Below are positions 14,845 to 40,704 of a stretch of DNA of 64,000 bases, one piece after another. Each line of letters opens with the position of its first letter. Position 1 is the stretch's first letter. Source of the stretch: Acidobacteriota bacterium (lineage in GTDB: Bacteria; Acidobacteriota; Thermoanaerobaculia; UBA5066); the NCBI GenBank assembly GCA_030278895.1, contig JARXKK010000001.1, positions 16,565 to 80,564 on the forward strand. Direction: 5' to 3'. The position numbers and the translations under genes were made by a program. The notes below the pieces were generated by a model. The model saw only the letters and a program-made list of their open reading frames with translations. It did not search any database and was not told where the DNA came from.

Positions 14845-17800
14845 GGCGCCTCGCCGGGAGTCAGCTCGTGGATCGCCGACGTGGATTCGTCGAGAACGAA
14901 GAGCGCCTGCGGCGCGTGCGAAAAGCGATACGGCGACGCGAGATCCTTGCGGCTGAGGCCGCTCGCCGCATGCGCCGGCATCAACCGCGTGCCCTGAACG
15001 TCGACGATGATCGGCGCCTCGTCGGGATTGTAGGGGACCAGAAGCCGCGGTCCGTCGAACGCGGCGCCGCGGAGATATTCGGGATGAGGCTCGCGCGCGA
15101 AAGCCAGCCTGAATCGGCCTTCGGGCACGAGAACGACCGGATCGCCGCCGAAGCGGAACAGATGCACGCCGCCGGCTTGCTCGACCACCGCGAGCCTGTC
15201 CCCCTCGAACGTCACGGCGATCGGCAGCTCGAACGTCCCACGCATCTCCCCTTCCGGTCCCCAGACGCTCTCGACCCGCCCGTCCGCGCGGAAGATGTGG
15301 AGAAAACTCCCGGTCGGAACGGCGAGGCGACCGCCCGGAAGACGCGCCGCGTGGGAGCCCGTGAGGCCGCCCGGAAGCTCCCAGCGCGCCTGGAGCGCGA
15401 GGTCCTTGTCGTAGCGCTCGAAAACCCGGAGCGAAAAAGCGGTGCATCCGCCGTCGGGTTCGACGAGAAGCGTCCCCGTGCTCGCGTCGCGCGGCAGGTC
15501 CGCGCGCACGCGCTTCGTCTCGATCCCGTCGCGCCCGAATCGGCGGATCTCCCACGTCTGGTCGCGGAGGAAAAGCGCGTAGAGGCGCCCCTCCCGGTCC
15601 ACGCCGAAATCCGAGATCCGGTGCGGCGGGCGCAGAACCTCCCGCGCGCGAGGCCAGCCCGCGAACGAGACCGGCTCGACGCCTCGCGTCTCGGGAACGA
15701 GGGCAAGAGCGGGCGCCGTCAATGCAGGCGCGAACGTTCCGTCGGCGCCCGAGACCGCGAGCAGCGGCCGGGTCCGCGAGGCGCAGCCGGCAGGCCCCGA
15801 GATCTCGAAGGGAAAGATGCCCGGGAGAAGCGGCCGCTCCTCTTCGCCATCCCAGCGCGCGGCACCGGCCGCGATGCGGGCGCCCGGACAGGGTGGGTCG
15901 AGGAGGAGCCGGTACCAGCCCGGCTTCGGTACCAGGAAGCCGCCGCGCAGGCCGGCCGGCGACATCTCGGGTGTCGTGGCGCGATGGAGCGCTTCGGGTT
16001 TCACCTCGAAGGTCATGAGCCGCTCCACCATGAGAGGCCAGTCGCGCTCCAGGACACGCGCCGCGGGGTCGATCGCGGGAAGAACGGACATGGCCAGCCG
16101 GGCGGACGGCACGTCGCGAAAGAGATACGCGACACGTGACACGCGAAGGGCGCTGCGCCGGGCCTCGATCTCGGCAGCCGCCATCGTCAGGGCGTAGACC
16201 TCCTCGCGGAAATCGCACGCGGGCCGCAGGAGCGACAGCAATTCGTCGCCCCGGTCGACGAACTGCATGCACGGCCCGGCCGGCGACAGCAGCCGGTCGA
16301 GAAAACCGAACTCGAGCGTCTTGCCGTGCCGGTAGAAGAGGTTGTGCAGGACGACGTCGTTCTTCTCGACGAGCGGGCGGGCGAAACGGATCTGCTCGTC
16401 CCGCACGATCGGAAGGGCGGGCAGCAGCAGATTCGAGGCGAGGCCCGAGGCCGAGATGCCCGCGAGAGCCAGGCCCGCGCTCGCCATCGCGAGGTTGCCC
16501 GCGAGGCGGCCGCCCGCCTCCCGCGCGAGACGAACCCAGGCCGTCACGACGAGAGCGGCGAGGAGGAGGATCGGAACGAAGATGACCGAGAGCCGCCGCG
16601 CGTCGGGCTCATCGGAAAGGACCCCGGGCAGGAGGCCGAGGCCGAGCCAGAAGAGAACGAGCGCGGATCGTCGCTCCGCAATCTGGCCGAGGAGATAGCC
16701 GAGGCCGACGGCCGCGAGGATCGTCAGCCCCACGCAAACCATCGGATCGCGCCCCGGCGCGACCGTGAAGCGCTCGTACCAGTGCGTCGCATATGCCTGG
16801 TGGGACGTCAGAGCCACGCCCACGCTCGCGAGGTTCCCGGCGACGCGCGCGGCCTGTCCCCGCAGGACTTCCACGAGAGGCGCGGTCGAGGAAAACCCCG
16901 CCCGCCACGCGGGCTCACCGCGCACCCGCGCCGGGTCGACGAACCCTCTTTCGCCCCCCGCGGCGGCGACGGCGATCGATACGCTCACGCCCCAGATCGC
17001 GATGCCGAGCAGCAGAACCGGCAGCGCGACGAGCGCACGGCGCGCGACTCCTTTCGCGAACAGAACGGCGTGCCCCGCGAGAAGAGCCGGGTACACGAAG
17101 AGGACGTGACCGGCCGTGTAAAAGAAGCGGCAGAGCGGTGTCAGGCAGGCGGCCAGCAGGACCGGCGCGATTCCGAAGCGAGCGATCATCGACAGGCCGA
17201 CGTGGGCGAAGAGGAGGCCGAGGGCGGCAACCGGCGCGAAGACCGACACCTCGCTTCGCGACCAGAAAAGCTGCTCGGGCGCGCAGACGAAAAGGAGAGT
17301 CGCCCCGAACGCCGGGAGCGCGCCCCCCGAGAGGCGTCGGACGAGACCCCAGAAAAGGGGCACGGCGGCAAGACCCCAGAGGAGAGCCGTGACGCGCGTC
17401 GCATAGAGCGACACGCCGAGCGCGGCGAACACGAGCCGGTTCGTCAGCGGCGTCGCGAGGCCGTTGCTCGTCCCGACGAACTCCGTCGCCGTGAACTGAC
17501 GGAGGCCGTGCGCGGTCCGGCTCTGCGTTTGCACGGAGATCATCTCCTCGTCGAAGTTCGACGGAAGCTGGTTGATGGCCCAGGCCCGCGTGAGGAGGGC
17601 AAGGAGAAACAGCGCGAGGAGACCCAGGGACTCGGTCCAGCCCGGCAGCGCCCCGCTCCGGGAGGGCTCCGGGGAGAGATCCGGAGGAAGCGCGGGAAAC
17701 CCCGGCGTCTTCGCGAGCGGCTGGATCCGTGCGGCGGCGGCCGCCGTCAGCACCGCGGCCGCGAAGAGAAGGAAGCCGGCGGGCCGCACGTCGCGGAGAA

Positions 17801-18137
17801 GGAGGATTTCCCCCCACACCGCGGCGACGGCCGCCGCGGAGAGGAGCGCCGCCGGAAGGCCGCGCCGGATCCCACGCGCGCACGCGGCCGCCGCGGTCGC
17901 CGCGACGAGCAGCGTCGCGAAGAGCGCCACGCCCGCGCGATGTTCGAAGAGCCAGCCGAGAGCCACGGCCGCCCCCGCCCGGAATCCGAACGCGAGAGGA
18001 TCGAGCGCGGACAGGACGCGGTCACCCCGCGCGGCTTCGCTTCGCCCGAGAAGAAGGGCGGCGAGAAGCAGGACGAACGCGGCGGCCCCCGCCGCGAGGA
18101 GCGGCAGCGCATCGCGAGACGCTCTTCCACGTCCCAT
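14841..18137 (-). CDS. GT-C fold glycosyltransferase, family 39-like (PMT/ArnT-like), with large C-terminal beta-propeller-like domain
   Basis: More than 12 TM helices and the DE motif (NQLPSNFDEEMISV). It is a paralog of the downstream gene. The 500-aa C-terminal extension is soluble and beta-rich. Confidence 0.65.
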   Translation of the reverse strand: MGRGRASRDALPLLAAGAAAFVLLLAALLLGRSEAARGDRVLSALDPLAFGFRAGAAVALGWLFEHRAGVALFATLLVAATAAAACARGIRRGLPAALLSAAAVAAVWGEILLLRDVRPAGFLLFAAAVLTAAAAARIQPLAKTPGFPALPPDLSPEPSRSGALPGWTESLGLLALFLLALLTRAWAINQLPSNFDEEMISVQTQSRTAHGLRQFTATEFVGTSNGLATPLTNRLVFAALGVSLYATRVTALLWGLAAVPLFWGLVRRLSGGALPAFGATLLFVCAPEQLFWSRSEVSVFAPVAALGLLFAHVGLSMIARFGIAPVLLAACLTPLCRFFYTAGHVLFVYPALLAGHAVLFAKGVARRALVALPVLLLGIAIWGVSVSIAVAAAGGERGFVDPARVRGEPAWRAGFSSTAPLVEVLRGQAARVAGNLASVGVALTSHQAYATHWYERFTVAPGRDPMVCVGLTILAAVGLGYLLGQIAERRSALVLFWLGLGLLPGVLSDEPDARRLSVIFVPILLLAALVVTAWVRLAREAGGRLAGNLAMASAGLALAGISASGLASNLLLPALPIVRDEQIRFARPLVEKNDVVLHNLFYRHGKTLEFGFLDRLLSPAGPCMQFVDRGDELLSLLRPACDFREEVYALTMAAAEIEARRSALRVSRVAYLFRDVPSARLAMSVLPAIDPAARVLERDWPLMVERLMTFEVKPEALHRATTPEMSPAGLRGGFLVPKPGWYRLLLDPPCPGARIAAGAARWDGEEERPLLPGIFPFEISGPAGCASRTRPLLAVSGADGTFAPALTAPALALVPETRGVEPVSFAGWPRAREVLRPPHRISDFGVDREGRLYALFLRDQTWEIRRFGRDGIETKRVRADLPRDASTGTLLVEPDGGCTAFSLRVFERYDKDLALQARWELPGGLTGSHAARLPGGRLAVPTGSFLHIFRADGRVESVWGPEGEMRGTFELPIAVTFEGDRLAVVEQAGGVHLFRFGGDPVVLVPEGRFRLAFAREPHPEYLRGAAFDGPRLLVPYNPDEAPIIVDVQGTRLMPAHAASGLSRKDLASPYRFSHAPQALFVLDESTSAIHELTPGEAP

Positions 18138-18140
18138 GCG

Positions 18141-19340
18141 CTAGCGGCCCGAGGGGGGAATCAGTTTTTTCGAGTCCAGGAATTCCACCGTCTGCTTCGC
18201 GAGGGCCGCGTAGCCATTCGGCCTGTAGTGGCAGTGATCGTAAAAGAGCCTCTCGTGGTTGGCCTGCCACGCCCGCCGCAGGAAGGGAAGCGGGTCGTCG
18301 AACGGAACATCCAGCCGTGCGCACATCCGGAGGCAGCTCTCCTGCGGCTCGAAGTTCTCGACCGTCCCCATCACCTGGATGTGCACGGGGAAGAGCACGA
18401 CGGCGAGGCGCGCCCCCTGCGCGTTCACGGCGTCGCGCAACGCCGCGGTGATCGCTTCGATGATCGTCCACGCCTTCGGGTTCCAGCCGAGGCCGAAATC
18501 CATGTACGCGTTGTAGATCTCGAAGTCGAATCCGTCGCGCGCCCCCATCATGTCGCCGCTTTTCAGATTCCGCCCCGCGCGAAACGTCTCGCGCCAGGCC
18601 GGATCGATCTCTCCCGGAAACGCGTTTCGGAAGAAGCGCGAGTCGAGGATCTGGAAGCGGTCCGAAAGCCAGCTCAGGAATCGGCTCTTCGCCCACGGGT
18701 CCGGAAGTTTCTTCGTGAAGAAGAGGCTTCCCGACTGCGCGTCGTTGAGATACATCCCCACGAGGACGAGATCGGGCTTCACGTGCTCCCCGATCTCCCG
18801 GAAGAGCGCGAGCTCCTCCGCCGTGCCGGCACCGGGCAGGCCCGCATTGACGAATCGGATCGTCTTCTTCCGCCCTTCGGTCAGGGATTCCATCTGCCGG
18901 GTCCACGTCTCGCTCTCCAGGACGAAGTCCCCGAACGTGATCGAGTCCCCGAGCACGAGCACGCGGAACTCGCCTTCGGGCTTCGGACCGAGCTCGGCGT
19001 ACCGAAGCCCCAGAGAGTTGACCTCGATGACGATGTCGCGTCCGCTCAGGACGTGATTGTGAATTTCGCCGCGCGTGTTCGGGCGAAGCCTGACGCCGTG
19101 AGGCCCGCCGAAGAGAACGACGGAGTCGATCGACTTCTCCGCCTTCGTGTCGAGCCGCTCGAAGCCGGACGGCGCCTCGTACTTTTCCTCCTTCTGGAGG
19201 ACTTTCACGGTCTGGGGCGCCGGGAGAAGGAGGCGCGCGCCGACCTCGCAAAGGGCGAGCGCCACGAATGTCGAGACGAGCAAAACGGCGAGGTTCAAGG
19301 CGAGCCTGCGCCTGCTCGACCCGAAAGTTGTGTCGTACAC
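18141..19340 (-). CDS. SGNH/GDSL-family hydrolase, membrane-anchored (possible sugar O-acyl esterase/transferase)
   Basis: N-terminal TM helix and the GDSx block VLVLGDSITFGD are present. The catalytic DxxH is near the C-terminus (FYDHCHYRPNGY). Confidence 0.75.
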   Translation of the reverse strand: MYDTTFGSSRRRLALNLAVLLVSTFVALALCEVGARLLLPAPQTVKVLQKEEKYEAPSGFERLDTKAEKSIDSVVLFGGPHGVRLRPNTRGEIHNHVLSGRDIVIEVNSLGLRYAELGPKPEGEFRVLVLGDSITFGDFVLESETWTRQMESLTEGRKKTIRFVNAGLPGAGTAEELALFREIGEHVKPDLVLVGMYLNDAQSGSLFFTKKLPDPWAKSRFLSWLSDRFQILDSRFFRNAFPGEIDPAWRETFRAGRNLKSGDMMGARDGFDFEIYNAYMDFGLGWNPKAWTIIEAITAALRDAVNAQGARLAVVLFPVHIQVMGTVENFEPQESCLRMCARLDVPFDDPLPFLRRAWQANHERLFYDHCHYRPNGYAALAKQTVEFLDSKKLIPPSGR

Positions 19341-26557: not shown

Positions 26558-27664
26558 GTGAGCGCGCCCCCCCGCCGCATCCTTCACCTCGACATGGATG
26601 CGTTCTACGCGTCCGTCGAGCAACGCGACGACCCCTCCCTGCGCGGCAGGCCCGTCGCGGTCGGCGGGGATCCGAAGGGCCGCGGCGTCGTCGTGGCCGC
26701 GAGCTACGAGGCGCGGAAGTTCGGCGTGCGCTCGGCGATCCCGATGGCGCGCGCGGTGCGCCTCTGCCCGCATCTCGCGATCGTCCGTCCCGACTTCAAG
26801 CGCTACGCCGCCGTCTCGAAGCAGATCTTCGACCTCTACCGGGCCGTCACGCCGCTCGTCGAGCCGCTTTCCCTCGACGAGGCGTACCTCGACGTGACGG
26901 AGAACGCGTGGAATGAACCGCTCGGCATGTCGGTCGCGCGCCGCCTGAAGGCGGAGGTCTTCGAGGCGACCTCTCTCACCGTCTCGGCGGGCGTCGCGCC
27001 GAACAAGTTCCTCGCGAAGATCGCCTCCGGCTGGAAGAAGCCCGACGGCCTGACGGTCATCGCGCCCGAAAGGGTCGAGAGGTTCCTCGAGAAGCTGCCG
27101 GTCGACGCGCTCTGGGGCGTCGGACCGAAGACGGCGGAGAAGCTGCTCGCGATCGGATGCGTCCGGCTCGTGGACGTACGGAAGGTTCCCGTGGAAGAGC
27201 TCCGGCGCGTCGTCGGCAGCTGGGCGGATTCCCTTCAGCGCCTCGCCCACGGCGAGGATTCCCGCCGCGTCGTCCCGAATCAGCGGGCGAAGTCGTGCAG
27301 CACCGAGGACACCTACGCGAAGGACCTGACCGACCTCGCCGAGATGCGGGCCGAGATCGAGGCCATGGCGCGCCATGACGCTTCGTGGCTCGCGCGGCGC
27401 GATCTCTTCGCGCGCACGGTCGTCCTGAAGGTGCGTTACGGGGACTTCACGACCGTCACGCGCAGCAACACACGGCGGCCTACGCGCGACGCGGACGAGC
27501 TCGCCGCGCGCGCCGCCCGGCTTCTCGAGCGGACGGACGCCGCCACGCGCCCCGTCCGTCTCCTCGGCGTCGGCGTCCACGGCCTCCTCACGCCCGAGGA
27601 GCTAAAGCGGGCGATCCCGCTCGACCCGCAGCTATCGTTCGTCTCCCTCGTCGAAGGGCCCTGA
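26558..27664 (+). CDS. dinB: DNA polymerase IV (Y-family translesion polymerase)
   Basis: RRILHLDMDAFYASVEQRDDPSLRGRPVAVGG, SLDEAYLDVT and the little-finger domain are present. GTG start. Confidence 0.9.
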   Translation: MSAPPRRILHLDMDAFYASVEQRDDPSLRGRPVAVGGDPKGRGVVVAASYEARKFGVRSAIPMARAVRLCPHLAIVRPDFKRYAAVSKQIFDLYRAVTPLVEPLSLDEAYLDVTENAWNEPLGMSVARRLKAEVFEATSLTVSAGVAPNKFLAKIASGWKKPDGLTVIAPERVERFLEKLPVDALWGVGPKTAEKLLAIGCVRLVDVRKVPVEELRRVVGSWADSLQRLAHGEDSRRVVPNQRAKSCSTEDTYAKDLTDLAEMRAEIEAMARHDASWLARRDLFARTVVLKVRYGDFTTVTRSNTRRPTRDADELAARAARLLERTDAATRPVRLLGVGVHGLLTPEELKRAIPLDPQLSFVSLVEGP

Positions 27665-29356: not shown

Positions 29357-29411
29357 CCCGACGAGTGTAAGCCGGGTCCGGCGGGCCGGTGTGCTACCTT
29401 GATTCCGTCCC

Positions 29412-31502
29412 GTGACGGTCTCGACGGCGCTCCTTTTCGCCTTCGTTCTTGTCCTGACGGCTGCGTCGGGTGCGGCCCTGCTCGCCCGTCTTTTCCGGGA
29501 CGACGACGCGGACCCCGGCTCCCGGGCCGACGCGGTTGTCTCTTTCGCCCTCCCCGTGGGCCTCGTGCTGGCCGCCCTGCCGGGCTGGCTCCTGTCGTCG
29601 ATCTTCTACGTCCCGATCACCCGGCTCGCGCTGCCGCTCGCGTTTCTCTCCCTGTCCGCGGCGCTCCTCTGGGGCGGAGCCCACCTGCCGGGAGTTCTTC
29701 CCCGCACGCGCGCACGCCTTCTCCCTCTCGCCGTCTTTTTCGGCGTCTTTCTCTTCTTCCTGTGGGTCCGCTGGACCTTCGCCGAGATCCGTCAGACGGA
29801 AAAGCCCATGGACTTCGCGGTCCTGTCGGGACTCATGACGACCGTGCGTCTCCCGTTCCCGGATCCGTGGCTTTCCGGCGAGCGGTTCCCGTACTACCAC
29901 TTCGGGACGTATCTGTTCGCCCTGCCTGCCCGCGCGGCCCGCGTCCCGTCGGAGTACGCCTACAACCTGATCGCGGCACTCCTGCCGGCCCTCGCGGCGC
30001 TCGCGGGATTCGGAGCGATCCGCGCCCGGCGGGGCGGAGCGGCGATCGCGGTGTTCGGCGGCCTCCTTCTCGTCCTCGGCGGGACGTTCGACGGCGCGCG
30101 GCAGTTCCTCTCGGACAAGCCCCTCAAGGACCTCGACTGGTGGATGTCCTCCCGCCGCGTCGACAACCCCCACACGATCACCGAGTGGCCGCTCTTCACG
30201 TTTCGCCTCGGGGACCTGCATCCACACGCGGTCGTCTTTCCGTTCTTCGTGACGTTCATCGGCCTCGCGGGCCGGATCTCCCGCGTGGGCGGGACCTTGC
30301 TCGACGGCGTACTCCTTGCGACCGTCCTCTCGGCGAACCCGTGGGATCTCCCCGCGACTCTCCTCGTCCTGGGCGCCGGAAACCTCGCCGAGCGGGATTT
30401 CAGGCCCGCCTTCATCCGCAGTCTCGCGACGCTCCTTCCCGCCGCCTTCTTTCTGACGCCCTTCGCACTCTCACCCCGCCCCGCGTTCAACGGCCTCTCC
30501 TGGTGGAAGGAAGGGACCGGATCCTGGGACGCCTTTCTTCACTTCGGCGTTCTCGCCGTGATTCCGGCCCTCGCGTTCGGGATCGCCCTCGTCCGCAGCC
30601 AGGTGCGCGCGGACCGGGCGCTCGTCGCGGCGTGCGCGTTTCCCGCCCTCGCGCTCGCGCTCGTCGTCCTCACGAAAAAACCGGTCTTTTCTCTTGCGGC
30701 CGGATTCGCCGCGGGCGTGCTCTGGCTGCTCCTCCGCGACGCGCCGCCGGGAGATCCCGCGCCTCCCGCCGGGGCGATCCGGGCCGGGCTTCTCCTCGCG
30801 GCATCGGGCGCGGTCCTCGCGGCCGTGCCGGACGTCGTCCTCGTCGCGGACACGTACGGCGAGGCGGCGCGCCGGATGAACACCGTCTTCAAGTGCTTCA
30901 TGGGGGCCTGGCCGCTCCTCGCGCTGGGCGGTGCCCTTCTCCTGCCGCTCGCGCTCGCGACGCGCCACGCGCGCGTCTTCGTCCGCATCGCCGTCGCCTG
31001 CGCCCTCGTCGGCGCCCTCGCCCACCCGCTTTCCGCCGTCGTCTTTCGCGCGAAATGGACGGGCGCCCTCGACGGGCTCGACGGCCTCCGTTGGATGACG
31101 CGCGAGGCGCCCGGCGATCGCGACGCGATCTCCTGGCTTCGCGCGCACGCCGTGGAGGGCGCGGTCCTCGCCGAGGCGACCGGGAACCCCTACACGGACT
31201 ACGGGCGCATCGGGGCGGCCACGGGGATCCCGACCGTTCTCGGCTGGGAGAACCACGAGGGGCTGTGGCGCGGCAACCGCTCCATCGCCGAGACGACGGC
31301 CCGTAAGGACGCCCTCCGGGCGATCTACTCTTCCGAGGACTCCGAGGCGGTCTTCAACATCCTGCACCGTTACAAGGTGCGTTACGTCTTCGTCGGCGCC
31401 CTCGAAAAGCGCGACTTCGGCCCGAGCGCCTTCCCGATGCGCGCCAACTTCCGCCGCGCCTTCACGGCCGGCGACTCCGCGGTCTTCGAGATTCTGAAAT
31501 GA
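29412..31502 (+). CDS. DUF2298 (chlor_Arch_YYY-type) polytopic membrane protein
   Basis: More than 14 TM helices. The conserved block EKPMDFAVLSGLMTTVRLPFPDPWLSGERFPYYHFGTYLF matches the family and the central domain of the 1617-aa protein. Confidence 0.7.
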   Translation: MTVSTALLFAFVLVLTAASGAALLARLFRDDDADPGSRADAVVSFALPVGLVLAALPGWLLSSIFYVPITRLALPLAFLSLSAALLWGGAHLPGVLPRTRARLLPLAVFFGVFLFFLWVRWTFAEIRQTEKPMDFAVLSGLMTTVRLPFPDPWLSGERFPYYHFGTYLFALPARAARVPSEYAYNLIAALLPALAALAGFGAIRARRGGAAIAVFGGLLLVLGGTFDGARQFLSDKPLKDLDWWMSSRRVDNPHTITEWPLFTFRLGDLHPHAVVFPFFVTFIGLAGRISRVGGTLLDGVLLATVLSANPWDLPATLLVLGAGNLAERDFRPAFIRSLATLLPAAFFLTPFALSPRPAFNGLSWWKEGTGSWDAFLHFGVLAVIPALAFGIALVRSQVRADRALVAACAFPALALALVVLTKKPVFSLAAGFAAGVLWLLLRDAPPGDPAPPAGAIRAGLLLAASGAVLAAVPDVVLVADTYGEAARRMNTVFKCFMGAWPLLALGGALLLPLALATRHARVFVRIAVACALVGALAHPLSAVVFRAKWTGALDGLDGLRWMTREAPGDRDAISWLRAHAVEGAVLAEATGNPYTDYGRIGAATGIPTVLGWENHEGLWRGNRSIAETTARKDALRAIYSSEDSEAVFNILHRYKVRYVFVGALEKRDFGPSAFPMRANFRRAFTAGDSAVFEILK

Positions 31503-33184
31503 ACGAAGCCGCCCCCCGCTCCGCCGCCGAGCCGCCGTTCTCGGACCTCGAGAAGAAGGCCTGGATCGCGCTCTTCGCCCTCTCGGCGCTCCTCCATCTC
31601 GTTCAGCTCGGGTCGCACGCGCTCCACCACGACGAGTCGATTCACGCGTGGGCCGCGCTGCATCTCATCCAGGACGGGACGTACAAGTACGACCCCGTCT
31701 ACCACGGGCCGGTTCAGTACTTCGCGGTCGCGCTCGCGTACAAGACGTGGGGCCTTCTGACCCTGAGCTCGGGCGACTCGGACTTCTCCGCGCGCCTCGC
31801 GCCCGCGCTCGGAGGCATCGCGCTCTCGATGATGGCGCTCCTTCTCCGGCGAAGGTTCGGCCCCGCCGCGGCCTTCGCCACGGGCGTCCTCGCGGCGTTC
31901 TCGCCGAACCTCCTCTACTACTCGCGCTTCTGCCGGGACGACATCTGGAGCCTTCTCGGCACGGCCGGCCTCTTCCTGTGGCTCGACCAGTACCTCGCGC
32001 GCGGGCGCCTTCGCGACCTCTGCTTCGCTTCCCTGTCGGCCTCGGTCGCATTCGCGTCAAAGGAAAACTTCTACGTCCTGCTCGCGCTCATGGTGCCGTC
32101 GGTCGCGGCCGCGTGGGCCGAGCCCGGTCGCGGGATCGACGTGTGGAACCGGCTGCGCCGCATCATCGACTGGCTCGAGGCGCACACCGTTCCTCTCGTG
32201 GGCGCCCTCCTCCTGTTCTTCTGCGTTTCCGAAGTTCTCTACACGTTTTTCCTCGTCCACCCAGAATCGGGCAATCCCGTCTTCGACGCGATCTCGTACT
32301 GGTGGGGCCAGCACAAGCTGGAGCGCGTCGGCGGCCCGAAGACGTTCTACCTGCCGCGCCTCCTGCAGTACGAGTTCGCGATCGTCCTGCCGGCGCTCGC
32401 CTTCATCGCGACGCGCTGGTCACGGTTCACCTTCGCCGAGCGCTTCCTCGCGGGCTGGGCGCTCTCGTCCGTCGCGATGTATGCGTACCTCGGCGAGAAG
32501 GCGGGCTGGCTCATCGTCCACCAGGTGCTCCCCTTCCTGCCGCTCGCCGGCGCCGCGTGGGCGCTCCTCGCCGGGAAGGGATCGCGCGCGCGGCTCGGCG
32601 GCGCGGTCGTCGTGGCCGCGTCGCTCCTGACGGCGGTGACCCTCTCCTTCGTCTATCCCGTCCTCACGCCCAATTCCCGCAAGGCGGAGTCGGCCATTCA
32701 GGTCCAGACCTGTCCGGAGATGCTGGGCCTCGTGGACGAGATCCTCGCGTACGGAAAGGTGGGCGAAGTGCCGGCCGCCATCGTCTCGGGGGAGGCGGGC
32801 TGGCCGATGAGCTGGTACGTCCGCAAGGCGCCCGTGAACTGGCAAGCTCCGAAGGGCGACCTCCGTCCGCCGATCGTCGTCTGCGACGACGCCGACGCCG
32901 ACAAGCAGGCTGAGGTTCTCGGGCCGTCCTACAAGCGCGACCGCGTGCCTTTCCGCGCCTGGTGGATTCCGGACGTGGCGCCCAAGCCGCTTCGGCCGAA
33001 CCTGAGACAGCTTCTTCTCTACCTCTTCACGCGCGAGACCTGGGACCGCGCCGACGGCAACAATCCGATCGGCTCGGTCTGGGTGACGGTCTTCCGGCGG
33101 ACGGGCCCGGCCACCTTGCCGCCCGTGCCGCCGCCGGCGCCCGCGCCCGCTGAGGCTCCTGCCGAGGCGAAGGGCACGTCATGA
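31499..33184 (+). CDS. GT-C fold glycosyltransferase-like membrane protein (TIGR03663/PMT_2-like)
   Basis: The DE motif HHDESIHAWAALHL follows TM1 and the protein is polytopic. The start overlaps the DUF2298 stop (ATGA). Confidence 0.7.
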   Translation: MNEAAPRSAAEPPFSDLEKKAWIALFALSALLHLVQLGSHALHHDESIHAWAALHLIQDGTYKYDPVYHGPVQYFAVALAYKTWGLLTLSSGDSDFSARLAPALGGIALSMMALLLRRRFGPAAAFATGVLAAFSPNLLYYSRFCRDDIWSLLGTAGLFLWLDQYLARGRLRDLCFASLSASVAFASKENFYVLLALMVPSVAAAWAEPGRGIDVWNRLRRIIDWLEAHTVPLVGALLLFFCVSEVLYTFFLVHPESGNPVFDAISYWWGQHKLERVGGPKTFYLPRLLQYEFAIVLPALAFIATRWSRFTFAERFLAGWALSSVAMYAYLGEKAGWLIVHQVLPFLPLAGAAWALLAGKGSRARLGGAVVVAASLLTAVTLSFVYPVLTPNSRKAESAIQVQTCPEMLGLVDEILAYGKVGEVPAAIVSGEAGWPMSWYVRKAPVNWQAPKGDLRPPIVVCDDADADKQAEVLGPSYKRDRVPFRAWWIPDVAPKPLRPNLRQLLLYLFTRETWDRADGNNPIGSVWVTVFRRTGPATLPPVPPPAPAPAEAPAEAKGTS

Positions 33185-34152
33185 ACCGCCCCGACGTCTC
33201 GGTCGCTCTGCCCGTTTTCAACGAAGTCGAGAATCTAGACGAGCTGAACGAGCGGCTCACGCGCGTTCTGACCGCGACCTCTCGCACGTGGGAGATCGTC
33301 TACGTGGACGACGGCTCGAGCGACCTCTCGTTCGAGAAGATGGCCGCCTTCGCCCGCCAGGATCCGCGCGTCCGTGCGCTCCGGTTCTCCCGGAATTTCG
33401 GCCACCAGATGGCGCTCACCGCGGGTGTCGACGCCGCGCGGGGTCGGGTCGTGGCGGTCATGGACGCGGACCTGCAGGACCCTCCCGAGCTTCTCTCAGA
33501 GATGCTGAAGAAGGTCGATGAGGGTTACGAAGTCGTCTATGCGCAGCGCAGCAAACGCGAGGGCGAGAGTGCTTTCAAGCTCTGGACCGCCCACGTCTTT
33601 TACCGGCTTCTGAAGCGCTGGACGAACGTGGACATCCCGGTCGACGTCGGGGACTTCCGTCTCATGGGGCCGAAGGCCGTGGCCGCGTTTCGGCGCCTGC
33701 GCGAGCGGCACCGCTTCATCCGCGGCATGACGGCGTGGGTGGGCTTCCGGCAGACGGGCGTCCTGTACGTACGGCCGCCGCGGACCAGGGGCGAGACGAA
33801 GTTCCCGCTCCGCAAGATGCTGCGGTTCGCCCTCGACGGACTCACCTCCTTCAGCCACGTGCCCCTCCAGCTCGCGACGTGGCTCGGATTCGCCGTGTCG
33901 TTCTTCGCGTTTCTCTACATCGTCGTCGTCGTTCTTCTCAAAGTGCTCGGGATCAACGAGCGCGGCTGGACGACGCTCATGGGATGGATCCTCCTCCTCG
34001 GCGGCGTGCAGCTCCTCATGATCGGCGTCCTCGGCGAATACCTCGGCCGAATCTACGACGAGGTGAAGGGCCGCCCGCTCTATCTCGTGGCGGAAGAGGT
34101 CGGAGGGAATACCTCGCCGGCCCAGGACGTTGACGTAACCTTGGAGCGATGA
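33181..34152 (+). CDS. polyprenyl-phosphate glycosyltransferase, GT2 (ArnC/GtrB/DPM1-like, with C-terminal TM helices)
   Basis: VSVALPVFNEVENL, IVYVDDGSSD, the DxD motif MDADLQD, and two C-terminal TM helices are present. The start overlaps the previous stop (ATGA). Confidence 0.85.
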   Translation: MNRPDVSVALPVFNEVENLDELNERLTRVLTATSRTWEIVYVDDGSSDLSFEKMAAFARQDPRVRALRFSRNFGHQMALTAGVDAARGRVVAVMDADLQDPPELLSEMLKKVDEGYEVVYAQRSKREGESAFKLWTAHVFYRLLKRWTNVDIPVDVGDFRLMGPKAVAAFRRLRERHRFIRGMTAWVGFRQTGVLYVRPPRTRGETKFPLRKMLRFALDGLTSFSHVPLQLATWLGFAVSFFAFLYIVVVVLLKVLGINERGWTTLMGWILLLGGVQLLMIGVLGEYLGRIYDEVKGRPLYLVAEEVGGNTSPAQDVDVTLER

Positions 34153-35114
34153 AGTCGGGCTACTACCACCAGGCGATCGGGGACCTCCGTCAGCGGCTCG
34201 CGGCCGCGGTCCCGCACGAGGTTCTGAAGGGGCTCCATCGCAAGAGCCCCTCGAGGCACTTCGCGGTCGCCGTCCGCCAGCTCGTCTTCTTCGCCGCCGC
34301 GCTTGCGCTCGGCTGGCACTTCGAGAGCCTGTGGGTCCGGATCCCGTGCGCGCTCGTCCTCGGGTTCGTCGTGTTCGACGGCACCGTCCTCCTTCACGAG
34401 GTCGTCCACAAGGCCGTCTTCGACGGTGACCGGCCGCGCGCCTACCGCGCCCTCGGCCTCCTCTACGCCCTGCCTTCCGGCATCTCGCCGGCGCAGTTCA
34501 CGCGCTGGCACCTCGATCACCATGCCGAGCTCGGCTCCTCGATCGACGACCCGAAGCGCGCGCACTTGTCCCCCAAGCTCAACGCGCGCTGGCTGAAGCT
34601 CCTCTACGCGACGCCCGCGCTCTTTCCCATCTACTTCCGCGCGGCCCGAACGGAGACCGCCACGTACCCGGAAACGCTGCAGCGCCGCATTCGGGCCGAG
34701 CGCTTCGCGGCCATCCTCCTGCACCTCGCCGCCGCCGCGGCGATCGGCTTTTTCGGCGGCGCCGCGCGCCTCCTGTGGCTGTATGCCGTTCCCGTTTTTC
34801 TCGTCTTCCCTCCCGCCTTCGCTCTCAATCGCCTCGGCCAGCACTACGACATCGTTCCCGCGGAACCCGCGAAGTGGGGCACCCGGATGGCCCGCGCGCC
34901 GCTTTGGGAGTTCGTCTACCTGTGGTCGAACCTTCACCTCGAGCACCATTACTTCCCGGCCGTTCCCTTCTACCGCCTTCCCGCCCTGAACGCCTCCCTC
35001 GAGCCCTTCTTCACCGAGGAGGGCATCACGGCGCGCACCTACCGGGATCTCCTCTACGGGTGGATCGTCGAGAATCGCGTGCCGCATTCGGACTGGCACG
35101 CCGATTTCCGGTAA
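34149..35114 (+). CDS. membrane fatty-acid desaturase-family protein (three His boxes)
   Basis: HEVVH, HLDHH and HLEHH boxes are spaced as in membrane desaturases/hydroxylases/ketolases. ATGA overlap with the GT2. Confidence 0.8.
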
Positions 35115-35124
35115 TCTCCGCGCG

Positions 35125-37269
35125 ATGGCGACGGAAATCGCGCCGCCGCAAGCGGACCAGTACGAGGGCCTTTCGCGCGAGGACCTGCTCCGGGCGTACC
35201 GGAACATGCTCACGTCCCGCCGGATCGACGACAAGGAAATCCAGCTCAAGCGCCAGAACCGCATCTTCTTCCAGATCAGCGGGGCCGGGCACGAAGCCGT
35301 CCAGACGGCGATCGCGTTTCAGATGCGAAAGGGCTCGGACTGGCTCTTCCCGTACTACCGTGACCGTGCGCTCTGCCTCGGCCTCGGCGTGAGCCCACGG
35401 GACATGTTCCTGCAGGCGGTCGGAGCCGCCGACGACCCGGCGTCCGCCGGGCGACAGATGCCATCGCATTGGGGTTCGGCCGCGCTCCGCATCTTCACGA
35501 CCTCCTCGCCGACGGCCACCGAATGCCTGCCAGGCGTCGGCGCGGCCGAAGCCGGCCGGTATCTCCAGCGCGAACAGGCGTCCGGCGCGGCCGGCCTCCT
35601 CGGCGCCGTCCAGGGCGCGGCGGCGGGCGAGATCGTCGTCGTGACGATCGGCGACGGCGCCACCTCCGAAGGCGAGTTCTGGGAGGCCTTGAACGCGGCG
35701 TGCCTGTCGAAGCTCCCCGTCGTCTTCGTCGTCGAGGACAACGGCTACGCGATCTCCGTGCCCGTCGAGGTGAACACCCCGGGGGGCTCCATCTCGAAGC
35801 TCGTGCGCTCGTATCCCGGCCTTTTCGTCGCCGAGACGGACGGCTGCGACTTCCTGGCCTCGTACGACGCGATGCGCTACGCGTTCGCGTACGCGCGCGA
35901 GAGGAAGGGCCCGTCGCTCGTCCACGCGCACGTCGTTCGCCCGTATTCGCACTCCCTTTCGGACGACGAGAAACTCTACCGCCCCGAGGCGGAACGGAAG
36001 AAGGACCTCGCCCGCGACCCGCTCGAGCTGTTCGCCGCCTTCCTCGCGAAAGAGAACCTCGCTTCCGCCGAGGAGCTCCTCGCTCTCGGCGAAGAGGTGA
36101 GCGCCCTCGTGAGCACCGCGGCGGACGAGGCCCTCGCGCGCCCGCAGCCCGGCCCCGACTCCGTCTTCGGGCACATCGTGTCTCGAGACGTCGATCCGAC
36201 GTCGGGTGCCTTCGACACGGAGGACCGGCCGGCATTCACGGGCGAGCCCACGACGATGGTCGACCTCATCAATGCCGCGCTTCGCGACGAGATGGCGCGC
36301 GACCAGCGCATCGCGATCTGGGGCGAGGACGTGGCGGACGCGAGTCGGAGCGACGTCCTCGGCGAGTGCAAGGGGAAGGGCGGCGTCTTCAAGGTGACGG
36401 CCGGCCTCCAGAAGGAGTTCGGGCCCGCGCGCGTGTTCAATTCGCCTCTCGCCGAGGCGAGCATCGTCGGCCGCGCCATCGGGTGGGCCGCGCGCGGACT
36501 GAGGCCGGTGGTCGAGATCCAGTTCTTCGATTACATCTGGCCCGCCATGCTGCAGATTCGCGACGAGCTCGCGACGACGCGCTGGCGCTCGGGCGGGTCC
36601 TTCCGCGCGCCGGTCGTCATCCGGGTCGCGATCGGCGGCTATCTCACGGGCGGAGGGCCCTACCACTCACAGTCGGGCGAGGTGACCTTCGCGCACATCC
36701 CGGGGCTCCGCGTCGTCATGCCGTCCAACGCTCTCGACGCGAATGGCCTTCTCCGCACGGCGATCCGTTGCGACGATCCCGTGCTCTTTCTCGAGCACAA
36801 GCACCTGTACCGCCAGACGCACAACAAGGGCCGCTACCCCGGTCCGGATTTCATGGTTCCCTTCGGCAAGGCGAAAACCGTGCGGCCCGGGACCGATGCC
36901 ACGATCGTGACCTACGGGGCGACGGTCTTCCGGAGCGCGGTCGCTGCCGCCCGCCTCGCGGAAGAGGACGGCCGGGACGCCGAGGTCATCGACCTGCGCT
37001 CGCTCGCGCCGTACGATTTCGACGCGATCGCCGAGAGCGTGAAGCGGACCAACCGGCTCCTCGTCGTCCACGAGGACTGGCAGACGCACGGCTTCGGGGC
37101 GGAGATCGCCGCGCGCGCCGCGGACGAGCTCTTCGGGTGGCTCGACGCGCCCGTGCGGCGCGTCGCCGCGAAGAACGTGTTCTGCGGCTACGCCCCGGAG
37201 CTGGAGAACGCCACGCTTCCGCAAAGCGAGGACATCCTCGCGGCGCTGCGCTCGCTGCTCGCATACTGA
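35125..37269 (+). CDS. 2-oxoacid dehydrogenase E1 component, fused alpha/beta subunits (TPP-dependent)
   Basis: The alpha part has the TPP motif [16 protein letters not shown]...[10 protein letters not shown]. The beta (transketolase-like) part is fused in the same 714-aa ORF. Confidence 0.85.
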
Positions 37270-37271
37270 CG

Positions 37272-38264
37272 ATGCGCCTCCGGAGCGTGGTTCTCGGAGC
37301 AACGGCTTTCTCCCTCTTCTTCCTCTTCGGCGCGATCGCCGTCGATCCCCTCCCCGTTTACCGCTCTCTCCAGGAGAAGCGTCTTTTCCTGTCGGGAGCG
37401 AAGCGCGAGGTCTTTGCCGCGGACGACGGAACATCCCTCTCGGCGTACGTTCTCGGACCGCTCTCCGCCGAGCGGCCCGTCGTCCTCCTCCACGGCCTCG
37501 GAGCCGACGCGACGTATTGGACAGAGGCCGCGCGCTTCCTCGCCCGGCAGGGCCGGACCGTGATCCTTCCGGACGCGCCTGGCTCGGGGCTCAGCGCGGC
37601 GCCGCACGATGCCGCCAGCTTCGGTGTGCGCGGCCGGGTGGCCGCGATGGACGCGCTCGCGCGGGCCCTCGCGCTCGAGAAGTTCGATTTCGTCGGCCAC
37701 TCCCTCGGCGGCTGGACGGCGGGCTGGTACGCGCTGGAGTTTCCCTGGAAGGTCTCACGGCTGGTCTTCGTGGACGCGGCGGGCCTCTCGCTTCCGGAGG
37801 ACACGGATGCAGAGCGCACGCGAGTGCTCCCGCGCGACCGCGCGGGAGCCCGCCGGATTTTCGACCTTCTCTTCTTCCGGAAGCCCGCGCCTTCCGCTGG
37901 TTTCATCCTCGACGCGTTTGGCCGGAACTACGGAAGCGGCACCGCAGCCGCAACGGTCGCGCGCCTCGCCGAGGCGGACGGCCTGCTGTCGCGCCTGCCC
38001 GACCTGCCGCCGCGAGCGACGCTCATCTGGGGCGAACGGGACACGCTCTTCCCTCTCGCCGAAGCACGCGGCGCCGCCTCGAAGATGCGCGAGGCGCGCT
38101 TCGTCGTCCTCGAGGGGACCGGACACGATGGGCCCCTCGAGGCCCCCGCCGCGTTCCATGCCGCTCTTCTCGCGGCGCTCGAAGGTCCGGCCCGCGTGAC
38201 GGGAGCTACTGCGGTCCCGCCGCCTCGAAGGTCGACACGATCGGAACGCTCGCCGACTCCGTGA
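37272..38264 (+). CDS. membrane-anchored alpha/beta hydrolase
   Basis: N-terminal TM helix, HGLGADATYW, and the nucleophile elbow GHSLGG are present. The 3' end overlaps the convergent gene by ~59 nt, so the stop is somewhat uncertain. Confidence 0.6.
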   Translation: MRLRSVVLGATAFSLFFLFGAIAVDPLPVYRSLQEKRLFLSGAKREVFAADDGTSLSAYVLGPLSAERPVVLLHGLGADATYWTEAARFLARQGRTVILPDAPGSGLSAAPHDAASFGVRGRVAAMDALARALALEKFDFVGHSLGGWTAGWYALEFPWKVSRLVFVDAAGLSLPEDTDAERTRVLPRDRAGARRIFDLLFFRKPAPSAGFILDAFGRNYGSGTAAATVARLAEADGLLSRLPDLPPRATLIWGERDTLFPLAEARGAASKMREARFVVLEGTGHDGPLEAPAAFHAALLAALEGPARVTGATAVPPPRRSTRSERSPTP

Positions 38265-39864
38265 GCCGCTCGTCGAACGCTTCGGCAAGGACGCGCCCGT
38301 CCATGTCGCGGGCGACGGGCTCGCCCGCGAGGACGAGCAGCGTCGGCGCGAGATCCAGGACGTTCGCGGACGTGAGCCGCACCCCCGACCGCACTCCGGC
38401 GCCCGAGAAGAGAACGAATCCATCGCGCGCGGCATCGGGGCTCGCGGCGGGTGTTTTTCCGCGCAGGAACCGCGCGACGGCCTCGAGCGTCGGCGGCGGC
38501 CCCCACGAGGCCGGAGCGAAGAGGCAGATCGTGCGATCCTGGCCCTCGCGTTCCAGGATCTCCCCCAGCAGGTCGTCGAGAAACCGGTAGTAGGCGCGAA
38601 GCGCGGCGGCTCGCGCGTCGGCCTCCGGGACGGAGAGGCCCCAGTAACGTGCGTTGCCCGCGGCTCCGAAGAGCCCGCTCACCTCCGCGAGGCCCGCGAG
38701 AACGACGGCCGAGACATTTCGCGGGCCGCCCGGCAGCGCCGCGAGAGCCGCCCCGGTGACCGTGAGATCGCGCGCGGCTCCGCGGAGGGGGGAGAGTCGA
38801 GCTTCACCCCTCGCAAGTCCGTCCGGAACGAGCGCGCGCGCGAGCGGCCGGTCGAGGCCGTCGGGCGAGACGCGAAAGAGCCGTGCCCGTGCGGCGGCCT
38901 CGACGGGGAGCGCCGTGTTCCCGGCCGCGCTCCCCTCGAAAAAGGCGTCGCTCGCCCAGAGGACGAGCCCCTCCCGCGCCGGCGAAGACGCGGGCCAGCC
39001 GAGGACCGCCGCCTCGTGGCCGCGCGAGGCGAGAATCTCCCAGAACGTCAGGCTGCGGCGCGCCGCCGCCGCATCTGCCGCCGGATGCGTGCGTCCCGGC
39101 ATCGCCAAGCCGGGCAGAACGGGGAGGAGGCGGAGCGTTCCCAGGGGCGTCTCCCAGCGACGCGACGACACGACGCCGTGCTTCAGGGGCCGTTTGCCCG
39201 TCGCGGCCGTCGTCCAGAGCGCAGCCCTGTCGTACGGAGAGAGAGCGGCCAGCGGGCCGGCCGCTCCCTCGCGCAGGAGCCGGGCGACCACCGGCATCGC
39301 CCCCTCCGAAGCGTAAGCCGTGAGGAGGTCCCACGACGCCCCCTCGAATCCGACGACGAGGAGGTTCCGCCGCGGCGCGCGGAGGGGAGCGGTCGCGGGC
39401 CCGGGCGCCGGGCGCTCCGGCGCGCGCCGGCCCACAGCGGGCGCGAGCAGGAAGAGGGCGAGCGAGATCGAAAGCGTCCCGGCGTTGGGCCCGCCGCGCA
39501 AGGCGCGGGCCGCGAGGACGGCCGCAGAAAGAAACGCGGCCAGGGCCGTCGCGACGAGCACACGCCGGACCCCGGAAGGGACGAAGTCGTGGAGCGCCTG
39601 CCGCTGGAACTCGACGAACACGCCGAACGCCGCGAGCAGGACGGCGCTCCAGGCCGCGCCGGCGCGCGAAGGGCGTCTGGCTCGCGACAGGAGGACGAGA
39701 GGCGAGGCGAGGATCGCTCCCGAAGCGGCGGCGACAAAGAGAAGGCGCGCGGCCGGAAGGAATTGCAGGAGCTCCGGATTGAGACCCAGCAGCAGGTCGC
39801 CCGCCGCGAGGCCGAAGAGCGCGCCTCCGAGAGGAAGGTGGTACGCCGGTCTGCCCTCGCTCAT
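38206..39864 (-). CDS. polytopic membrane protein with C-terminal alkaline-phosphatase-superfamily (type I phosphodiesterase-like) domain
   Basis: The N-terminal ~170 aa has 5-6 TM helices, then LLVVGFEGASWDLL and a long soluble domain. The start was set at ATG (MSEGRPAYHL); the upstream part of the track ORF is an R-rich artefact. Confidence 0.55.
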   Translation of the reverse strand: MSEGRPAYHLPLGGALFGLAAGDLLLGLNPELLQFLPAARLLFVAAASGAILASPLVLLSRARRPSRAGAAWSAVLLAAFGVFVEFQRQALHDFVPSGVRRVLVATALAAFLSAAVLAARALRGGPNAGTLSISLALFLLAPAVGRRAPERPAPGPATAPLRAPRRNLLVVGFEGASWDLLTAYASEGAMPVVARLLREGAAGPLAALSPYDRAALWTTAATGKRPLKHGVVSSRRWETPLGTLRLLPVLPGLAMPGRTHPAADAAAARRSLTFWEILASRGHEAAVLGWPASSPAREGLVLWASDAFFEGSAAGNTALPVEAAARARLFRVSPDGLDRPLARALVPDGLARGEARLSPLRGAARDLTVTGAALAALPGGPRNVSAVVLAGLAEVSGLFGAAGNARYWGLSVPEADARAAALRAYYRFLDDLLGEILEREGQDRTICLFAPASWGPPPTLEAVARFLRGKTPAASPDAARDGFVLFSGAGVRSGVRLTSANVLDLAPTLLVLAGEPVARDMDGRVLAEAFDERLTESASVPIVSTFEAAGPQ

Positions 39865-39897
39865 AATCCGCGCCCGGCGAGTGTCGCCCTCTTCCCG

Positions 39898-40704
39898 ATG
39901 GCCGTCAACGAATCCCTCCGCGTCCTCAGGACGACTCATTACGACGAACAGCACTACTCGCTGTTTCTGTCGGCGGGCTCGATCGGCCCGGCCACGCGGC
40001 CGGGACACTTCGCGATGATTCAGGCCGGCGAGGGGCTGCGCCCGTATCTCCGCCGCGCGTTCTCCATCGCCGACGTCACCACGGTCGCGGGCGTGCCCGC
40101 GCTGGAGTTCGTCGTCAAGGTGGTCGGCGTCGGGACGGCCGCGCTCGCGCGTTTCGCCGAAGGGACGCCGCTCCCGGTCCTCGGCCCGCTCGGCGTGCCG
40201 TTCCCGATCGACGACCTCCTCCCCACGGACCGCGTCGCCCTCGTCGCCGGCGGGATAGGCCTCGCGCCCCTCGTCCTCCTCGCCCGGACGCTCGCCGCCC
40301 GCGGGATCGCCGCCGACCTTTTCTACGGCGGACGCAACGAGAACGACATCCTGAAGAGGCCCGAGTTCGAGCGATTCCTCGGCTCCCACCGGTGCCGCTA
40401 CGCGACGGACGACGGTTCGCTCGGACGGCGGGGCCTCGTCACCGACCTTTTCACGCATGCGCTCGCCGGCGGCGCGCGTTACCGCCGCGCCTACGCCTGC
40501 GGCCCACTGCCGATGTTCCGCGCGCTCACCCGGCTTCTCGCGGACGCGGAGCTCGAAGGCTCGTTCGCGATGGAGTCCGAGATGGCCTGCGGCTTCGGCG
40601 TCTGCCTCGGCTGCGTCGTTCCGATGGCCGACGGGCGCTTCGCGACGATCTGCAAGGAAGGGCCGTGCGTCGCGCCCAGCCGGATCGACTGGACCCGGCT
40701 ATGA
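39898..40704 (+). CDS. pyrK: dihydroorotate dehydrogenase electron-transfer subunit
   Basis: FAD/NAD-binding ferredoxin-reductase fold and the C-terminal 2Fe-2S motif MACGFGVCLGCVV. Confidence 0.85.
   Translation: MAVNESLRVLRTTHYDEQHYSLFLSAGSIGPATRPGHFAMIQAGEGLRPYLRRAFSIADVTTVAGVPALEFVVKVVGVGTAALARFAEGTPLPVLGPLGVPFPIDDLLPTDRVALVAGGIGLAPLVLLARTLAARGIAADLFYGGRNENDILKRPEFERFLGSHRCRYATDDGSLGRRGLVTDLFTHALAGGARYRRAYACGPLPMFRALTRLLADAELEGSFAMESEMACGFGVCLGCVVPMADGRFATICKEGPCVAPSRIDWTRL

Follow-up and report, generated by a model that had tools for sequence, protein, structure and literature searches.

We analysed a gene cassette at positions 29412-35114 of a 64-kb stretch of DNA (the window) from a metagenome-assembled genome (MAG) of the Thermoanaerobaculia (Acidobacteriota). 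It probably encodes a glycosylation system of the Gtr/Arn/Pgf type that acts outside the cytoplasm and depends on a polyprenyl-phosphate sugar, and in which a DUF2298 protein would be the GT-C transferase. Four genes follow each other on the plus strand and encode a DUF2298/TIGR03662 (Chlor_Arch_YYY) membrane protein (29412-31502, 696 amino acids (aa), GTG start), a TIGR03663/Agl23-family protein (31499-33184, 561 aa), a GtrB-type polyprenyl-phosphate glycosyltransferase of family GT2 (33181-34152, 323 aa) and a membrane di-iron enzyme of the FA_desaturase family (34149-35114, 321 aa). A flavin adenine dinucleotide (FAD) oxidoreductase of the Amino_oxidase fold (PRK07233; 28028-29356, minus strand) is divergent from them. 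A sequence-only reading had described the four plus-strand genes as an operon joined by ATGA overlaps; the coordinates and all three junctions, at each of which the start overlaps the preceding stop, were confirmed, profile searches supported its family calls for all four genes above curated cut-offs, and its HHDE, MDADLQD and three-His-box motifs were all present. However, the packed string of co-directional genes does not stop at 35114 but extends past the desaturase gene to 38264.

The DUF2298 protein matched Pfam DUF2298 (PF10060) with an E-value of 1.3e-67 and 229 bits (cut-off 27.8), and TIGR03662 with 362.7 bits over residues 39-693 (cut-off 300.25). It reads P-Y161-Y162-H-F-G165, with two of the three tyrosines of YYYxG, the motif behind the name of family TIGR03662; Y161, Y162 and G165 were kept in 47-48 of 50 relatives. 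A sequence search of the PDB gave no usable relative. The AlphaFold2 model, made from a homologue alignment, had a pLDDT of 84.5 and a pTM of 0.90, and the structural homology search that had been suggested for this protein (Foldseek against the PDB) showed that its matches with a probability of at least 0.8 were GT-C enzymes. The top matches were DPY19 (6.8e-6), AftA (1.4e-4, TM-score 0.43-0.49) and PglB (1.1e-3), followed by ALG9, AftD, Pmt1/2, Emb and ArnT, and the C-terminal domain matched the C-terminal globular domain of AglB (probability 0.99), while transporters were matched with low probability and solely above an E-value of 0.05. From its model, the DUF2298 protein is thus predicted to be a glycosyltransferase of the GT-C fold that ends in an alpha/beta domain outside the cytoplasm.

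Residues E130, K131, D134, W153, Y161, Y162, D268, H270, H272, N309, D480, E588, R599, W612 and H615 were kept in 46-50 of 50 DUF2298 sequences (at least 28% identity), in an alignment that includes Dehalococcoidia proteins and the DUF2298 domain of a fusion protein described below; positions 256-263 and 488-494, which had been used to retrieve loci, were left out of this argument. The loop 120-184 (EKPMDF...PYYHFG), which holds E130 and D134, would be periplasmic by the positive-inside rule because it is bounded by two short Arg-rich loops, PRTRAR (96-101) and RARRGG (204-209), which flank TM4 and TM5 (transmembrane (TM) helices 4 and 5). The catalytic loop of GT-C enzymes is expected on this side of the membrane. 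When 1.84 billion cluster representatives (clusters at 50% identity) were searched with the DUF2298 profile, 7524 clusters matched with E <= 1e-3 and 3522 with E <= 1e-30, and the family is not a rare one. Some of the matching proteins were very large (2.4-2.7 kaa) and were hit by the profile in three to five stretches, so that one polypeptide holds several copies of DUF2298.

The 561-aa protein scored 242.4 bits against TIGR03663 (cut-off 126.25) over residues 22-444 and matched Pfam PMT_2 (E = 8.9e-8). Its H43-H44-D45-E46 motif directly follows TM1 (21-39), with the positively charged N-terminus placed inside, and it carries the DE (D45-E46), HGP (69-71) and invariant arginines of the family, whose hallmarks are an N-terminal DE dipeptide, an HGP tripeptide and two arginines, all invariant. 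In 27 TIGR03663 sequences, H43, H44, D45, E46, H69, G70, P71, R117, R119, R143 and R146 were invariant. The PDB sequence search again gave no usable relative. All 24 of the 24 Foldseek matches of the AlphaFold2 model (homologue alignment; pLDDT 79.5, pTM 0.82) with E <= 1e-3 in the PDB were GT-C proteins, the best being ArnT (5f15, E = 5.6e-7, TM-score 0.56-0.58) and others STT3/AglB/PglB, ALG12, ALG9, Pmt4 and DPY19. Comparison of the DUF2298 and TIGR03663 alignments by hhalign detected no sequence-profile similarity, and the relationship between the two proteins is at the level of the fold only.

The sequence-only reading had called the trio of DUF2298, TIGR03663 and GT2 functionally uncharacterised, which remains true of DUF2298, with incidental mentions alone, but not of TIGR03663, which NCBIfam now names 'flippase activity-associated protein Agl23' and for which translocation in vitro is on record. 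In Haloarcula hispanica, Agl23 was proposed as the flippase for hexose-phosphodolichol, and Agl22 is a glycosyltransferase associated with it, the pair serving N- and O-glycan synthesis (PMC11182771). Agl23 rescues yeast rft1-delta, and the purified protein translocates M5GN2-PP-lipid in proteoliposomes (PMC11182771). The label 'Agl23 flippase' nevertheless calls for caution: because of the ArnT-like fold of the model, the invariant acidic loop-1 motif and the existence of DUF2298+GT2 pairs without TIGR03663 (see below), the protein may be a second transferase instead of, or besides, a flippase.

The GT2 matched Pfam Glycos_transf_2 (E = 5e-32). In the PDB sequence search its residues 5-308 aligned with 5ekp, the GtrB of Synechocystis (sll0501), at an E-value of 2.8e-90 and 47% identity, both TM helices being covered, while ArnC (3e-44) and Dpm synthase (4e-16) were weaker matches; the bit scores were 306 to GtrB and 155 to ArnC. 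The DxD motif is D95-A-D97 within MDADLQD, and the C-terminal TM helices lie at 235-253 and 266-284. The protein scored below the NCBIfam equivalog cut-offs of PgfS (272.5 bits against 500, its best NCBIfam match) and ArnC (162.3 against 529), and its 22 bits against the haloarchaeal dolichyl-phosphate hexose transferase model (cut-off 375) showed that it is not an orthologue of that enzyme. Because the GtrB match is full-length, the ArnC and Dpm matches are weaker and the PgfS and ArnC cut-offs are not reached, sequence comparison assigns it as a GtrB-type polyprenyl-phosphate glycosyltransferase and an orthologue of neither PgfS nor ArnC. The earlier assignment to the ArnC/GtrB/DPM1 type with a C-terminal membrane anchor was therefore borne out, with GtrB as the closest member. 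The proposed dependence on a polyprenyl-phosphate sugar likewise gained support from this full-length GtrB homologue and the two GT-C-fold models; GT-C folds use lipid-phosphate-linked donors.

Gene neighbourhoods were compared in 78 loci from one scan of species-representative genomes, in which the window proteins were mapped by tblastn. Almost all loci were from Thermoanaerobaculia or Holophagales and a few from Dehalococcoidia. Those with a DUF2298 protein at least 47% identical to that of the window (54 loci) were treated as the orthologous clade and those at 28-38% identity (24 loci) as distant, and the counts given here are of informative loci, i.e. those with enough flanking sequence. 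This analysis, which had been proposed as a test of the conservation of the trio, showed that TIGR03663 was adjacent in 44 of 45 orthologous and 8 of 19 distant loci, and that the GT2 lay beside DUF2298 (within 3 kb) in 44 of 45 and 14 of 19, respectively (58/64 in total). The PRK07233 FAD oxidoreductase was divergent and adjacent in 42/44 orthologous loci and in 0/22 distant ones. The conserved unit of the orthologous clade is the divergent FAD oxidoreductase followed by DUF2298, TIGR03663 and GT2, and the counts leave DUF2298+GT2 as the minimal conserved pair; the distant DUF2298+GT2 neighbourhoods had no further recurrent partner. The cassette had been thought to be reported mainly from Chloroflexi and Archaea, a distribution that no longer fully holds given the 7524 DUF2298 clusters and its general occurrence in Thermoanaerobaculia and Holophagales.

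In one Dehalococcoidia locus (UBA2158; L069, 9911-17506) a single strand encodes a DUF2298 protein of 803 aa, a PMT_2 GT-C protein of 914 aa, a flippase-like protein of the LPG_synthase_TM/MprF type (PF03706, 359 aa) and an Amino_oxidase FAD enzyme of 483 aa, 39% identical to the FAD oxidoreductase of the window, while no GtrB-like GT2 was seen in its flank. This gene order extends the flavoenzyme link across phyla and gives an independent hint of lipid-linked-sugar flipping. The FAD oxidoreductase, DUF2298, TIGR03663 and GT2 genes were also found, at 53-75% identity to those of the window, on two short contigs (L044 and L048; 3.9 and 5.3 kb) that belong to a MAG named 'Acidithiobacillales bacterium MAG235' (JBLMYG01), for which mis-binning is more likely than horizontal transfer.

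These results can be arranged in a pathway of three steps. The GT2, with its catalytic domain in the cytoplasm, would use a nucleotide sugar to glycosylate polyprenyl phosphate, a step for which its GtrB homology argues, the sugar presumably being of the hexose type. The lipid-linked sugar would then reach the outer face of the inner membrane; given that an archaeal relative can translocate such sugars in vitro, the Agl23-family protein is the obvious candidate for a helper in this step. DUF2298, which carries invariant histidines, arginines and acidic residues in loops predicted to be periplasmic, would finally pass the sugar to an extracytoplasmic acceptor. With no TM segment and an FAD-binding motif at the extreme N-terminus, the PRK07233 flavoenzyme should be a cytoplasmic enzyme that works on either the donor or the carrier; modification of the donor sugar or carrier lipid before translocation would be a speculative role for it. 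The acceptor is more likely to be an envelope glycan or glycoprotein than bulk membrane lipid, because GT-C paralogues in the same gene island carry NHL and PA14 ligand-binding domains and because the fold matches are split between protein- and glycan-modifying enzymes.

Several observations weigh against this pathway. The TM-scores of DUF2298 to solved GT-C enzymes were modest (0.32-0.49), and the equivalence of E130/D134 to a GT-C catalytic acid is putative. The literature on DUF2298, TIGR03662/3 and PF10060 gave nothing beyond incidental mention, such as a Chloroflexi neighbourhood that lists DUF2298 beside PMT2/PA14 and PMT2 genes, and no biochemistry for the DUF2298 family. The cluster yielded neither a GtrA-type nor a Wzx-type flippase; for GtrA-like small flippases this refers to Pfam matches among the open reading frames (ORFs) scanned between 11.9 and 42.4 kb, the small ORFs not having been searched exhaustively. 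TIGR03663 was lacking in 10 of 19 distant DUF2298+GT2 loci and therefore cannot be a flippase that this pair always needs. The sample of loci is taxonomically biased, since the patterns used to retrieve them came from an alignment of acidobacterial sequences. Finally, the ATGA overlap between the GT2 stop and the desaturase start fits co-expression of a gene that the pathway leaves out.

The neighbourhood survey nevertheless separated the desaturase from the trio. The 321-aa protein is, as previously described, a three-His-box membrane desaturase (PF00487, E = 2.6e-28, 99.9 bits against a cut-off of 29.7; H83EVVH, H121LDHH and H263LEHH). It fits no characterised equivalog in NCBIfam, its best scores being 34.5 bits for GntB, 27.8 for CrtR and 25.5 for DesB, and the PDB sequence search returned nothing usable. 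Its gene was adjacent to that of the GT2 in 18 of 36 orthologous loci, displaced by 0.9-6.7 kb in six and absent from the flank in 12, while none of the 14 distant loci had it, either adjacent or displaced. The genes that displace it from the GT2 in other species of the clade were unrelated ones (multihaem cytochromes, sortilin/BNR proteins, DUF2911). A 321-aa ORF that follows the GT2 in one Holophagales locus (L050) was considered as a divergent desaturase and rejected, having no Pfam match.

Downstream of the desaturase gene, the fifth co-directional gene (35125-37269, plus strand, 714 aa) starts 10 bp after the desaturase stop and encodes a fused E1 alpha+beta component of a thiamine pyrophosphate (TPP)-dependent 2-oxoacid dehydrogenase (E1ab), with E1_dh, Transket_pyr and Transketolase_C domains and scores that reach none of the NCBIfam equivalog cut-offs; neither an E2 nor an E3 component was seen near it. 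The sixth (37272-38264, plus strand, 330 aa) begins 2 bp beyond the E1 stop and encodes an alpha/beta hydrolase (Abhydrolase_1, E = 2.3e-26) whose N-terminus forms a TM or signal segment, and a membrane phosphodiesterase gene (38206-40458, minus strand) is convergent with it. E1ab travels with the desaturase. In Holophagales the desaturase orthologue (74-75% identical) is located away from the trio, in the order desaturase, sigma-54 activator, E1ab, alpha/beta hydrolase and, further on, phosphodiesterase, and in one assembly the desaturase block and the trio are on different contigs (L079 and L035). In the window as well as in L079 and L080, the desaturase, fused E1, hydrolase and convergent phosphodiesterase make up a separate syntenic block. 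Because Holophagales keep the desaturase with E1ab, hydrolase and phosphodiesterase elsewhere, comparison of gene order indicates that two syntenic blocks meet in the four-gene 'operon' and became coupled in translation in this sub-lineage, and that the desaturase, fused E1 and hydrolase are co-transcribed lineage neighbours from a different module.

The desaturation link and membrane-lipid acceptor of the sequence-only reading were not supported by these counts. That all four genes form one pathway, which would glycosylate a membrane lipid that the desaturase also modifies, is very improbable: the absence of the desaturase from 12/36 orthologous and all 14 distant loci, the intervening genes, its lack of a characterised equivalog and its Holophagales location on another contig with the sigma-54 activator, E1ab, hydrolase and phosphodiesterase all argue against it, even though the GT2-desaturase coupling recurs in five close relatives of the window, half of the informative orthologous loci keep the two genes adjacent, and GT-C enzymes with lipid acceptors exist (ArnT and PimE are among the fold matches).

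Protein glycosylation is a sub-case of the proposed extracytoplasmic pathway and differs from it in the acceptor alone. Here DUF2298 and/or TIGR03663 would act like PMT, DPY19, oligosaccharyltransferase (OST) or PgfM1/PgfM2 of Streptococcus mutans on secreted or envelope proteins, which we consider rather unlikely. The protein-modifying DPY19 and PglB are top fold matches of DUF2298, its C-terminal domain resembles that of AglB, and PgfS is the best NCBIfam match of the GT2; however, AftA, whose acceptor is a glycan, scored nearly as well for DUF2298, the PgfS score falls far short of its cut-off, no OST WWDYG motif was recognised, and no candidate acceptor protein was conserved next to the cassette in the survey neighbourhoods. 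The resemblance to the Pgf system (PgfS, PgfM1, PgfE, PgfM2) would lie in a GtrB-like synthase that serves two large polytopic membrane proteins, while no epimerase is present here. The role of Agl22/Agl23 in N- and O-glycan synthesis in Haloarcula (PMC11182771) also favours a protein acceptor. The 561-aa protein, above the TIGR03663 cut-off and paired with a GT2 predicted to make a lipid-phosphate-hexose, is comparable to that system, but the cassette here is bacterial and its carrier is therefore presumably of the undecaprenyl type instead of dolichol, its GT2 is not an orthologue of the haloarchaeal enzyme, and the work on that system describes no role for a DUF2298 partner (PMC11182771).

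Comparison with ArnC/ArnT showed the same flow from synthase through translocation to a GT-C enzyme. In an Arn-like modification of lipopolysaccharide (LPS) or lipid A, TIGR03663 would transfer the GT2-made sugar to lipid A or core, and DUF2298 would play an accessory part or act as another transferase. In its favour, the model of TIGR03663 matches ArnT best, ArnC is a clear homologue of the GT2, and ArnT and PMT enzymes carry an acidic loop-1 motif to which the invariant HHDE behind TM1 is similar. This alternative is improbable, however, in view of the GT2 being closer to GtrB than to ArnC and below the ArnC cut-off, the absence of ArnA/B/D sugar-nucleotide enzymes and of ArnE/F from the window ORFs scanned, the occurrence of the family in Archaea and Dehalococcoidia, which are organisms without LPS, and the distant DUF2298+GT2 loci without TIGR03663.

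The Gtr system (GtrA/GtrB/GtrC) follows the same logic as the cassette, with a cytoplasmic polyprenyl-phosphate-sugar synthase beside a large polytopic GT-C-type transferase, and the GT2 shares with GtrB the DxD motif and the two C-terminal TM helices. The cassette differs from it in having no recognised GtrA, two GT-C-fold proteins (DUF2298 and TIGR03663) instead of one GtrC, and a conserved FAD oxidoreductase partner. The mycobacterial AftA/AftB/AftD/EmbA/B enzymes with DprE1 are comparable in that AftA ranked second among the fold matches of DUF2298, a lipid-linked sugar would feed several GT-C modules of the island and a flavoenzyme is genetically linked; the decaprenylphosphoryl-arabinose (DPA) and polyprenyl-phosphomannose (PPM) systems of mycobacteria likewise combine a lipid-phosphate-sugar synthase with GT-C transferases. 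However, the FAD enzyme here has the amine-oxidase/PRK07233 fold and not that of DprE1, the Aft/Emb families are not homologous in sequence, and there is no arabinose pathway.

The other GT-C modules lie upstream of the cassette. A fusion protein (19268/19364-24217, plus strand) joins a PMT_2-type GT-C part, a DUF2298/TIGR03662 domain and a C-terminal NHL beta-propeller. Its TIGR03662 domain is complete (393 bits) and 31% identical to the 696-aa protein, while its N-terminal part is PMT_2-like and not TIGR03663 (BLASTP E = 0.001, no NCBIfam match), so that the partial duplication of the trio attributed to it stands for DUF2298 but not for TIGR03663. The view that it links the two islands is supported by at least 17 further species in which it recurs no more than 10 kb from the trio (loci such as L027, L034, L037-L040, L045, L050, L051 and L076); in L039 and L076 it sits between DUF2298 and TIGR03663. 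A protein of about 959 aa (11959-14838, minus strand, start approximate) combines PMT_2 (4e-10) and PA14 (4.3e-13) by Pfam. Between the two lie the genes of a 1098-aa protein without a Pfam match (14841-18137, minus strand) and of a GDSL lipase (18141-19340, minus strand). The N-terminus of the 1098-aa protein is weakly like TIGR03663 loop-1, including 'NFDEE' (hhalign E = 0.0056, probability 6.5%), and on this sequence it may be another divergent GT-C. In three distant loci of Acidobacteriota (L052, L057 and L062, 11751-14144) an NHL-repeat domain is fused to or follows TIGR03663, mirroring the fusion protein of the window.

A bolder reading makes DUF2298 the founder of a GT-C family that, together with the PMT_2/NHL/PA14 paralogues, would build an unknown envelope glycan in Acidobacteria, Chloroflexota and Archaea from a single polyprenyl-phosphate sugar, with PRK07233 remodelling the donor or carrier before export in the manner of DprE1. 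This is a long shot; if it were true, Agl23-family proteins would be bifunctional or primarily transferases and not dedicated flippases.

The FAD oxidoreductase scored 453 bits against NCBIfam PRK07233 (NF005560, cut-off 252), an entry listed as hypothetical protein, and 53 bits against the next match, HpnE (cut-off 283); the PDB sequence search gave nothing usable, and the literature on PRK07233 gave incidental or no mentions. The 55-bp region between this gene and DUF2298 (29357-29411) keeps two blocks in an alignment of 14 species, AGTGTAAGCC and TTGTGCTACCTTGA. The reverse complement of AGTGTAAGCC contains TACACT, 7 nt before the ATG of the FAD oxidoreductase, and TTGTGCTACCTTGA is TGnTAnnnT-like and ends 11 nt before the GTG of DUF2298, which suggests back-to-back promoters for leaderless or near-leaderless mRNAs. 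A promoter consensus scan found no sigma-70 site, the Rfam search of the window gave no match, and the nine terminator-like sites (6.1 +/- 2.6 expected) included none between genes.

Beyond the FAD oxidoreductase lies a small ArsC/Spx-like ORF (27667 to about 27999, minus strand) with an in-frame TGA in MRNVDFYYHRQG-TGA-TSCGR, giving U-x-x-C where such proteins have C-x-x-C; both had been said to flank the cassette, the ORF as a candidate selenoprotein, and both were found there. A hairpin after the TGA folded no better than shuffled sequence (z = -0.03). A SelA gene is present near the trio in one Holophagales locus (L051, 17011-18390, minus strand). A DinB-type (impB/mucB/samB) translesion polymerase gene (26594-27664, plus strand) sits between a permease gene and the ArsC-like ORF and is hidden inside a 705-aa frame when longest ORFs are listed.

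The gene calls agree with their context and with public data. The window has a G+C content of about 70%, and the G+C content at third codon positions (GC3) of the four ORFs was 0.86-0.91, as in real genes of this genome. The closest public proteins, from MAGs labelled Acidobacteriota/Thermoanaerobaculia, were 98-100% identical (98% for the 696-aa protein and 100% for the 561-aa protein, annotated as TIGR03663 family) and did not differ in length, in support of the start codons.

As an association defined by computation, the cassette was already known; new here are its occurrence across Thermoanaerobaculia and Holophagales, the prediction that DUF2298 has a GT-C fold, the partnership with a flavoenzyme and the finding that the desaturase is not a conserved member. 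Current views are not overturned, and a known scheme of envelope glycosylation would be extended to an unstudied enzyme family and phylum, with the PRK07233 flavoenzyme as an unstudied cross-phylum partner. DUF2298, a sizeable family of about 7500 clusters at 50% identity, would thereby gain a testable assignment as a GT-C that uses the product of the adjacent GtrB-like synthase, with E130, D134, D268, H270 and H272 as candidate catalytic residues.

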